Both the position numbers and the translations under genes were made by a program. A DNA stretch of 64,000 bases from Eledone cirrhosa. Its lineage: Eukaryota. Position 1 is the first letter of the stretch. Each line of letters opens with the position of its first letter. The stretch lies in NCBI GenBank assembly GCA_964016885.1, contig OZ024741.1:171120001-171184000 (forward strand), read 5' to 3'. Positions 23,109 through 30,057 of the stretch are shown one piece after another. The notes below the pieces were generated by a model. The model did no database searches. It was not told the DNA's origin and was given only the letters and a program-made list of their open reading frames with translations.

Positions 23109-26100
23109 ACAATTAAGTTAAAGTGTACATCTACATATGTATACGGAAGTATTAGTATGCATATAAATACACACATGTATACATATGTACATGTAATCAG
23201 CTTTTCACTAGACACTTTACAGTGTCAGCTAGTCTGTATGTAACCACACAGACGGACCGGGTTTTAGAGTCATACGGGTTTTCAAGGAAACACATTTCCT
23301 CTATTCTCCAGAGGGCCAGACAGGAATATTGGACTAGTTTCGATGTTATTACATCTCATCAGCAATATTTACCCATCTTCCGGCTTCTCTGGAGAATTGT
23401 AAAAGCACATATCGTTATATGCTTTTTCTATGAAAATTAGTAGTGGGTAGACTAATTTGCATAGAACGTGAGTCATTGTACGCACCGGTTCAGCGGAAAC
23501 GATAAAAACAAATAACGAAACGAAATTAAATTTCGTTTCGCTTCTAACTCACTTTTGTATGACTGACGCTTAAACAATTAAGTTAAAGTGTACATCTACA
23601 TATGTATACGGAAGTATTAGTATGCATATAAATACACACATGTATACATATGTACATGTACTCAGCTTTTCACTAGACACTTTACAGTGTCAGCTAGTCT
23701 GTATGTAACCACACAGACGGACCGGGTTTTAGAGTCATACGGGTTTTCAAGGAAGCACATTTCCTCTATTTTTCAGAGGGCCAGACAGGAATATTGGACT
23801 AGTTTCGATGTTATTACATCTCATCAGCAATATTTACCCATCTTCCGGCTTCTCTGGAGAATTGTAAAAGCACATATCGTTATATGCTTTTTCTATGAAA
23901 ATTAGTAGTGGGTAGACTAATTTGCATAGAACGTGAGTCATTGTACGCACCGGTTCAGCGGAAACGATAAAAACAAATAACGAAACGAAATTAAATTTCG
24001 TTTCGCTTCTAACTCACTTTTGTATGACTGACGCTTAAACAATTAAGTTAAAGTGTACATCTACATATGTATACGGAAGTATTAGTATGCATATAAATAC
24101 ACACATGTATACATATGTACATGTACTCAGCTTTTCACTAGACACTTTACAGTGTCAGCTAGTCTGTATGTAACCACACAGACGGACCGGGTTTTAGAGT
24201 CATACGGGTTTTCAAGGAAACACATTTCCTCTATTCTCCAGAGGGCCAGACAGGAATATTGGACTAGTTTCGATGTTATTACATCTCATCAGCAATATTT
24301 ACCCATCTTCCGGCTTCTCTGGAGAATTGTAAAAGCACATATCGTTATATGCTTTTTCTATGAAAATTAGTAGTGGGTAGACTAATTTGCATAGAACGTG
24401 AGTCATTGTACGCACCGGTTCAGCGGAAACGATAAAAACAAATAACGAAACGAAATTAAATTTCGTTTCGCTTCTAACTCACTTTTGTATGACTGACGCT
24501 TAAACAATTAAGTTAAAGTGTACATCTACATATGTATACGGAAGTATTAGTATGCATATAAATACACACATGTATACATATGTACATGTACTCAGCTTTT
24601 CACTAGACACTTTACAGTGTCAGCTAGTCTGTATGTAACCACACAGACGGACCGGGTTTTAGAGTCATACGGGTTTTCAAGGAAACACATTTCCTCTATT
24701 CTCCAGAGGGCCAGACAGGAATATTGGACTAGTTTCGATGTTATTACATCTCATCAGCAATATTTACCCATCTTCCGGCTTCTCTGGAGAATTGTAAAAG
24801 CACATATCGTTATATGCTTTTTCTATGAAAATTAGTAGTGGGTAGACTAATTTGCATAGAACGTGAGTCATTGTACGCACCGGTTCAGCGGAAACGATAA
24901 AAACAAATAACGAAACGAAATTAAATTTCGTTTCGCTTCTAACTCACTTTTGTATGACTGACGCTTAAACAATTAAGTTAAAGTGTACATCTACATATGT
25001 ATACGGAAGTATTAGTATGCATATAAATACACACATGTATACATATGTACATGTACTCAGCTTTTCACTAGACACTTTACAGTGTCAGCTAGTCTGTATG
25101 TAACCACACAGACGGACCGGGTTTTAGAGTCATACGGGTTTTCAAGGAAACACATTTCCTCTATTCTCCAGAGGGCCAGACAGGAATATTGGACTAGTTT
25201 CGATGTTATTACATCTCATCAGCAATATTTACCCATCTTCCGGCTTCTCTGGAGAATTGTAAAAGCACATATCGTTATATGCTTTTTCTATGAAAATTAG
25301 TAGTGGGTAGACTAATTTGCATAGAACGTGAGTCATTGTACGCACCGGTTCAGCGGAAACGATAAAAACAAATAACGAAACGAAATTAAATTTCGTTTCG
25401 CTTCTAACTCACTTTTGTATGACTGACGCTTAAACAATTAAGTTAAAGTGTACATCTACATATGTATACGGAAGTATTAGTATGCATATAAATACACACA
25501 TGTATACATATGTACATGTACTCAGCTTTTCACTAGACACTTTACAGTGTCAGCTAGTCTGTATGTAACCACACAGACGGACCGGGTTTTAGAGTCATAC
25601 GGGTTTTCAAGGAAACACATTTCCTCTATTCTCCAAAGGGCCAGACAGGAATATTGGACTAGTTTCGATGTTATTACATCTCATCAGCAATATTTACCCA
25701 TCTTCCGGCTTCTCTGGAGAATTGTAAAAGCACATATCGTTATATGCTTTTTCTATGAAAATTAGTAGTGGGTAGACTAATTTGCATAGAACGTGAGTCA
25801 TTGTACGCACCGGTTCAGCGGAAACGATAAAAACAAATAACGAAACGAAATTAAATTTCGTTTCGCTTCTAACTCACTTTTGTATGACTGACGCTTAAAC
25901 AATTAAGTTAAAGTGTACATCTACATATGTATACGGAAGTATTAGTATGCATATAAATACACACATGTATACATATGTACATGTACTCAGCTTTTCACTA
26001 GACACTTTACAGTGTCAGCTAGTCTGTATGTAACCACACATTCGGACCGGGTTTTAGAGTCATACGGGTTTTCAAGGAAACACATTTCCTCTATTCTACA

Positions 26101-26945
26101 GAGGGCCAGACAGGAATATTGGACTAGTTTCGATGTTATTACATCTCATCAGCAATATTTACCCATCTTCCGGCTTCTCTGGAGAATTGTAAAAGCACAT
26201 ATCGTTATATGCTTTTTCTATGAAAATTAGTAGTGGGTAGACTAATTTGCATAGAACGTGAGTCATTGTACGCACCGGTTCAGCGGAAACGATAAAAACA
26301 AATAACGAAACGAAATTAAATTTCGTTTCGCTTCTAACTCACTTTTGTATGACTGACGCTTAAACAATTAAGTTAAAGTGTACATCTACATATGTATACG
26401 GAAGTATTAGTATGCATATAAATACACACATGTATACATATGTACATGTACTCAGCTTTTCACTAGACACTTTACAGTGTCAGCTAGTCTGTATGTAACC
26501 ACACAGACGGACCGGGTTTTAGAGTCATACGGGTTTTCAAGGAAACACATTTCCTCTATTCTACAGAGGGCCAGACAGGAATATTGGACTAGTTTCGATG
26601 TTATTACATCTCATCAGCAATATTTACCCATCTTCCGGCTTCTCTGGAGAATTGTAAAAGCACATATCGTTATATGCTTTTTCTATGAAAATTAGTAGTG
26701 GGTAGACTAATTTGCATAGAACGTGAGTCATTGTACGCACCGGTTCAGCGGAAACGATAAAAACAAATAACGAAACGAAATTAAATTTCGTTTCGCTTCT
26801 AACTCACTTTTGTATGACTGACGCTTAAACAATTAAGTTAAAGTGTACATCTACATATGTATACGGAAGTATTAGTATGCATATAAATACACACATGTAT
26901 ACATATGTACATGTACTCAGCTTTTCACTAGACACTTTACAGTGT
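23109..26945 (-). repeat. 465-bp tandem array, left arm (about 8.25 units, HHR on minus strand)
   Basis: Exact 465-bp period. HHRs at 23325-23369 and every 465 bp up to 26580-26624. Confidence 0.97.
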
Positions 26946-29900: not shown

Positions 29901-30057
29901 CATGTACATATGTATACATGTGTGTATTTATATGCATACTAATACTTCCGTATACATATGTAGATGTACACTTTAACTTAATTGTTTAAGCGTCAGTCAT
30001 ACAAAAGTGAGTTAGAAGCGAAACGAAATTTAATTTCGTTTCGTTATTTGTTTTTAT
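26948..30057 (+). repeat. 465-bp tandem array, right (inverted) arm (about 6.7 units, HHR on plus strand)
   Basis: Reverse complement of the left arm. It ends in (TA)n. Confidence 0.97.
27400..27444 (+). ncRNA. Minimal type I hammerhead ribozyme (also starting at 27865, 28330, 28795, 29260, 29725; eight more on the minus strand in the left arm)
   Basis: AATATTG-CTGATGA-GATG(TAATAA)CATC-GAAA-CTAG-TC-CAATATT: canonical core, GUC site, predicted cleavage after C27437. Confidence 0.93.

Follow-up and report, generated by a model that had tools for sequence, protein, structure and literature searches.

Insertions of Penelope-like elements (PLEs) are described as carrying an inverted 5'-truncated copy at their 5' end and a one-sided tail, and as lying in (TA)n targets (PMC8557442, PMC3846280, PMC2377424), and the way in which their tandem and inverted forms arise is stated to be undefined (PMC8557442). 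In vitro work on an anole PLE protein showed that it cuts AT-rich DNA on both strands and extends each of them, that its starts fall at two sites, one on either side of the 'tail', and that the RNA it uses is mainly uncleaved (PMC11167929). Animal retrozymes are derived from PLEs according to a 2026 preprint (bioRxiv 10.64898/2026.07.22.740005), and the metazoan non-LTR forms are stated to have units of 150-450 bp, with circular RNA proposed as their template (PMC7229834). Hammerheads with a 1-bp helix III and a palindromic loop cleave poorly as monomers (PMC7229834), and tandem copies should favour dimeric hammerhead cleavage (PMC4209133, PMC7229834). The nearest described two-ended priming is LINE-1 twin priming, which copies adjacent, non-overlapping parts of the RNA, with a 12-nt gap in the example read (bioRxiv 10.1101/2024.12.14.628481).

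We analysed a window of Eledone cirrhosa DNA, meaning the whole 64-kb stretch, around a 7-kb fold-back array that the original prediction had placed at 23109..30057. In the sequence as given this boundary held base for base, and TRF resolved the region into two opposed arrays of a 465-nt unit (Table 1). Both arms are 5'-truncated arrays joined head-to-head (5' to 5'), their 3' ends face (TA)n runs, and neither contains an indel, which leaves the 465-nt phase free of gaps. This layout is that of the described head-to-head PLE insertion, which the original prediction had not placed. No stop-to-stop frame of at least 120 aa was found in 23109-30057 and no LTR was seen in the insertion sequence; the insertion is not an autonomous PLE, having no RT/GIY-YIG ORF, and it inserts like one. 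We regard it as very probably a young non-autonomous retrozyme array that PLE machinery inserted in one event.

Table 1. Coordinates of the inverted array, its variants and related insertions in the 64-kb window.
Feature	Position	Strand	Details
Left array	23109-26945	-	TRF: 465 nt x 8.3, 99%
Right array	26948-30057	+	TRF: 465 nt x 6.7, 99%
Left (TA)n target run	23079..23108	.	common to older hammerhead palindrome 22510-23081
Left arm 3' end	unit position 248	-	abuts (TA)n; ribozyme strand minus
Left-arm overhang without mirror partner	23109..23966	-	858 nt; left arm longer outside
Left-only changes	23196, 23755, 23771, 23773		n = 4; all in overhang
Junction filler	26946..26947	.	2 nt; alternative reading: 1-nt insertion + 2-nt microhomology
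Unpaired centre	26948..27078	+	131 nt of unit in right-arm sense; begins within hammerhead
Right arm 3' end	unit position 317-320	+	abuts (TA)n; ribozyme strand plus
72-nt 'tail'	29986..30057	+	between two recurring 3' end sites; right end only
Right (TA)n target run	30058..30307	.	degenerate farther out; adjoins hammerhead palindrome 30300-30603
Complete left-arm hammerheads	cores start 26617, 26152, 25687, 25222, 24757, 24292, 23827, 23362	-	n = 8
Complete right-arm hammerheads	cores 27407, 27872, 28337, 28802, 29267, 29732	+	n = 6
Mirrored variant pairs	26563/27461; 26098/27926; 26041-2/27982-3; 25636/28388		4 events
Right-only changes	27284 (G>T), 27836 (A>G), 28961 (A>G)	+	interleaved with mirrored sites
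Sister retrozyme array B	5146-7000	+	469 nt x 4.0; 86% like main unit; between (TA)n runs
PLE-like ORF 3' fragment, then 594-nt array	17437-21526	+	5.5 copies of 594-nt unit ending in (TA)n
Two older family-D insertions	45245-45825, 45899-46656	+	period ~417 nt; same ribozyme core; (TA)n between
Head-to-head palindrome	22510-23081		arms 94.8%; minimal hammerhead motifs
Head-to-head palindrome	30300-30603		arms 100%; motif broken in one arm
Head-to-head palindrome	41004-42495		arms 97.4%; minimal hammerhead motifs
Head-to-head palindrome	61632-62009		arms 100%; minimal hammerhead motifs
Nested inverted element	61370-62318		outer-pair ribozyme motifs inward, around inner head-to-head palindrome

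Judged by its sequence, the unit is a 465-nt non-coding repeat (GC 0.36-0.37) with a type I hammerhead, a non-LTR retrozyme. Complete cores were present in 14/14 complete sites across both arms, folding into a 7-bp stem I, a 5-bp stem II and a 1-bp helix III with a palindromic 4-nt loop, and self-cleavage is predicted after 28367 and then every 465 nt. Rfam HH9 matched at 31.8 bits (E 4e-6), under its gathering score of 52, and at gathering score Rfam gave 0 matches in the 64-kb window. Six of 14 pairs change on both sides among 5 window copies of 3 families, which are few and related sequences; the ribozyme of array B carries a compensatory change in stem II. The unit folds more stably than its shuffles (z = -11.5 linear), and in circular form z was -12.2 on the ribozyme strand and -6.5 on the other. 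Low-scoring Rfam miRNA-precursor matches were rejected as AT-rich hairpins far below the cut-offs. A search of metagenome contigs with the ribozyme pattern returned 0 matches.

The unit-specific variants named in the original prediction were all found where it had put them, and so were the mirroring and the three changes private to the right arm: four left-arm events recur at mirrored right-arm sites, with the same letters and in the same order. In unit coordinates this order reads G49T (unit 2), G49T plus TC105AA (unit 3) and C46T (unit 4). Arm-against-arm comparison covered the 14 registers with overlap, and the mirror register (26945 opposite 27079) gave 3 mismatches in 2,979 nt. Six negative-side registers gave 9-16 mismatches in 1,178-3,110 nt and the seventh gave 6 in 713, the next four positive-side registers gave 5-9 in 1,119-2,514 nt, and the two shortest (1 in 654 nt, 0 in 189 nt) cover too few variant sites to inform. 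The chance of such a mirror is about 2e-12 with random sites, and about 0.004 when the shared alleles are taken as given and nothing but their arrangement across the units is shuffled. Register and chance figures together support the earlier claim that both arms came from one molecule. A monomeric circle read in two independent passes is excluded here, because unrelated errors would then be expected in the two arms.

The mirror register is also the tightest possible, leaving the smallest loop (133 nt), and this is what one would expect if the arms were identical or phase-unrelated at insertion and later variants crossed the axis by hairpin or cruciform arm-to-arm conversion, or if break repair folded back an existing array. 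Such conversion occurs in palindromes, and in two of the small palindromes close to the array the arms match at 100% (102/102, 179/179). Other palindromes in the window, however, have drifted to 80-98% arm identity, and the three right-only changes lie between the sites that would have been converted. The left-arm variants are moreover clustered, with 5/8 events in unit positions 46-51 (p 1e-5; 0.003 with linked ones collapsed), a pattern not given by random germline mutation, and no variant occurs along the 1,855 nt of sister array B. With these points against it, later exchange between the arms appears quite improbable.

A likelier account than later conversion, though still an unlikely one, is that the left arm, errors included, arose when a monomeric circle was reverse-transcribed by rolling-circle copying, that the cDNA folded back and was copied as DNA, and that an endonuclease resolved the hairpin at the second recurring 3' site, with at least 131 nt lost on one side of the tip. 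The tightest register would follow from this as well, and within the mirrored range the one-sided changes are 3/3 in the right arm and 0 in the left, although this asymmetry is not significant (p = 0.25). The clustered positions behave as an error hot spot, in which one base just inside a long stem was substituted differently (G>T twice, G>A once). Self-priming has been proposed for inverted PLE junctions (PMC3846280), and circles have been proposed as retrozyme templates (PMC7229834). Against folding back and copying, two further events would be required, a second cut precisely at the recurring 3' site and the loss of sequence from one side of the centre. If the hairpin at the left cDNA end had primed its own extension, the letters that follow would also be different from those seen.

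The simpler form of this idea, in which the original prediction had one arm copied from the other by snap-back or template switching, survives only as far as the common molecule. A plain snap-back of the left arm misfits because the central 131 nt, in right-arm sense, show none of the variants that mark the three left units closest to them, and because the right arm's outer end is the recurring 3' end and not a random stop. A snap-back beginning in any of those three units was rejected on the same absence. As origins of single changes, A-to-I editing was rejected for the right-only set, only 2/3 of which are A>G and which are too few, and templating by the stem's partner strand was rejected for the hot spot, where the letters mismatch by inspection. 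The right-only change at 27836 (unit position 424) equals the state of sister family B, possibly by coincidence.

The ends of the arms are shared with other insertions in the window. The 3' end of array B lies no more than 2 nt from where the left arm ends on its outer side, both insertions of the more distant family D end at the right arm's outer-end boundary (near 45825 and 46656), and the sister insertions thus end in 3/3 cases (n = 3) at one of two sites 72 nt apart. Given these two recurring 3' sites and the in vitro behaviour of the PLE protein, each arm looks separately primed. A (TA)n target lies on both flanks of the main array and also at the 3' flanks of arrays B, C and D, and a 3-nt microhomology to (TA)n exists at the right-end site, as it does at 15 positions per unit. 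At the junction, both cDNA 3' ends lie at the base of a 5-bp hairpin, a post hoc observation that holds for 28/465 positions each. The centre is lopsided, in that 26946-27078 (133 nt) has no mirror partner and belongs to the right arm only. The ribozyme cut site was considered as the 5' end of the right arm and rejected, as the arm begins 25 nt before the predicted site. By inspection, 8 letters across the left junction side (26938-26950) are found again some 95 nt further upstream in the unit, consistent with a filler templated nearby.

Our preferred reading, held tentatively and at somewhat less than even chances, is a single PLE-driven insertion in which both sides of a (TA)n cut primed copying of the same multimeric template. 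A PLE RT-endonuclease would cut both strands of a (TA)n run, and each free 3' end would prime reverse transcription of one long uncleaved multimeric RNA, or alternatively of two sister transcripts of one source array. On the left, priming would have begun in unit 9, at start site 1; on the right, it would have begun in unit 7, at start site 2. Both copies would run to near the template's 5' end, where the two hairpin-capped cDNA ends would be end-joined with the 2-nt filler. The mirrored variants would already have been in the template, and the one-sided ones would be new errors or later mutations. In this account the anatomy, the ribozyme fold, the mirror and the recurring ends are observations, whereas the enzyme, priming from both sides, RNA as the template and end-joining are inferred.

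We count for dual priming the ribozyme and its fold, the poor monomer cleavage known for its type of helix III, the recurring ends, the in vitro behaviour of the anole PLE protein, the hairpin-base ends, the PLE-like fragment within the window and the head-to-head orientation of 4/5 ribozyme-bearing pairs. Several features weigh against it: the one-sided changes all fall in the right arm, which suits one-way copying (p = 0.25), the clustering at positions 46-51 resembles RT errors on one repeatedly read template, though these might be errors that the source array had picked up in a previous round, and the tightest register is what hairpin-based models predict. Dual priming also needs a 4-kb multimer to escape 8 ribozymes, though tandem copies should favour dimeric cleavage, and this difficulty counts in favour of the folded-back cDNA. 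The tail is 72 nt and not 30-40, the right-end site has its (TA)n microhomology, and one of the 5 ribozyme-bearing pairs (61370-62318) is oriented oppositely. Neither an autonomous partner nor a source array was found within the 64-kb window. A more general claim is that PLE machinery copies one multi-kb uncleaved RNA twice, from each target-cut end and at two start sites, and that retrozyme arrays spread as linear multimers, not as rolling-circle copies of monomeric circles, with variants making this readable genome-wide; we consider it doubtful on present evidence.

The window also contains a PLE-like endonuclease fragment. This fragment, at 17604-18044, aligns at 49% identity with the C-terminus of an RT protein of 803 aa whose record carries the name Octopus vulgaris, and it contains what we take to be a cysteine motif and a GIY-YIG-like core. 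It matched no Pfam family and no phage, and RVT_1 on its homologue was below cut-off; we call it PLE-like from these putative motifs and from the homologue's layout. The 594-nt array behind it has 4 variants in 3,268 nt, one of them common to units 2 and 4, and was missed by TRF (period over 500). No canonical hammerhead core was found in this array at 17437-21526, and the 465-nt unit has no match to the 594-nt repeat, which follows the window's only PLE-like fragment. Recently active PLE families have been listed for O. vulgaris, in a paper in which the word 'hammerhead' was not found (PMC13282606).

Other repeats populate the window. GC-rich LINE-like remains occupy 50557-57196, with nested inverted pieces of 88-93% identity and an Exo_endo_phos domain at 55232-56020. 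Two LINE 3' fragments that are 85% alike, presumably RTE-like, lie at 7035-7519 (+) and 57392-57753, one of them directly following the (TA)n run of array B. A 258-aa frame at 48824-49600 (-) has a weak zf-RVT match and what we assume to be a restriction-like endonuclease motif, marking the 3' end of a non-LTR element. A SINE-like repeat of about 190 nt occurs in many copies, for example at 36386-36781, 58495-58892, 31821-32036 and 43807-43989, twice as tandem dimers.

Ribozyme motifs in both arms were found in 5 of 12 other inverted regions examined, 4/5 of them head-to-head. In the four small palindromes stem I has up to 4-8 bp, and two of them, 22510-23081 and 30300-30603, flank the main array directly; they are MITE-like at sight, but look like ribozyme-bearing inverted pseudo-LTR relics. 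The outer pair of the nested element at 61370-62318, the 1/5 pointing the opposite way, is related to the 22510 family. The head-to-head layout is thus usual in this genome, and in two cases predates sequencing, because the arms of those palindromes have diverged.

These older elements bear on a technical explanation, in which a fold-back read from sequencing, amplification or assembly bridged two real opposed arrays. Inverted chimeras that have lost their centre are a typical amplification product, and near-identical family copies in public DNA runs make a false bridge possible: 5 rows from 3 studies hold at least half of the sampled words (best 0.75), a measure that cannot tell whether the junction is included, the 15 of 20 listed holders with under half of the words being left out. 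Among those 20 holders there were no RNA runs. The right arm, however, differs from the left by 3 substitutions and no indel, and error profiles of single long reads are unlike such substitution-only differences. The flanks differ, the arm lengths differ, and the same layout recurs in the older elements with diverged arms (94.8%, 97.4%), impossible from a fold-back read. We consider an artefact improbable, though hardly less likely than later conversion.

As a near-perfect inverted repeat of 3 kb, the locus may be a source of dsRNA, in a lineage known for RNA editing. Any transcript entering from either flank could form a duplex with perfect stretches of 205, 551, 1,124 and 1,096 nt. The original prediction had seen in such dsRNA a substrate for ADAR or siRNA pathways, which it may be, and had added that the hammerheads might cut the transcript first. 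This proviso appears weak, as a read-through transcript has ribozymes in its second arm only; cleavage there would not prevent pairing, because the first arm remains uncut and the 465-nt pieces set free would still be complementary to it.

The mirrored variants amount to a natural barcode for the building of PLE-type inverted insertions and make the mechanism testable. Ordinary inverted pseudo-LTRs are too short for such markers, which a multi-unit array with unit-specific variants does carry. The locus implies either an uncleaved multimer as template or a second arm copied from DNA; both outcomes constrain the PLE insertion model, and scanning such arrays across one good assembly could show which of the two applies. 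In the main texts of open-access papers we found no description of variants mirrored in this way, whether in inverted retrozyme arrays or in inverted PLE arrays. Both parts, the retrozyme array and the inverted PLE form, are known, and an inverted multi-unit array with template-marking variants was not found described in those texts.

Compared with LINE-1 twin priming and fold-back, the locus shares two primed ends at one break, inverted cDNA pieces and end-joining, but both arms here copy the same 2,979 nt. With metazoan non-LTR retrozymes it shares tandem non-coding low-GC units with a type I hammerhead in each (PMC7229834), a weak palindromic helix III as in amphibian copies, and the proposed dependence on PLEs; its unit lies just above the stated size range, and inverted arrays are absent from the main texts of PMC7229834 and bioRxiv 10.64898/2026.07.22.740005. 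With inverted PLE insertions it shares the inverted 5'-truncated copy, the 5' junction, the (TA)n target, a tail-like extension at one end and no discernible target-site duplication, whereas the tail in those insertions is 30-40 nt (PMC8557442, PMC3846280, PMC2377424). The insertion anatomy ties a retrozyme to the PLE hallmarks of inverted layout, tail and TA target, and the locus differs from those insertions in that it has no ORF, its arms are multi-unit arrays of 3-4 kb, and unit-specific variants mark the template.
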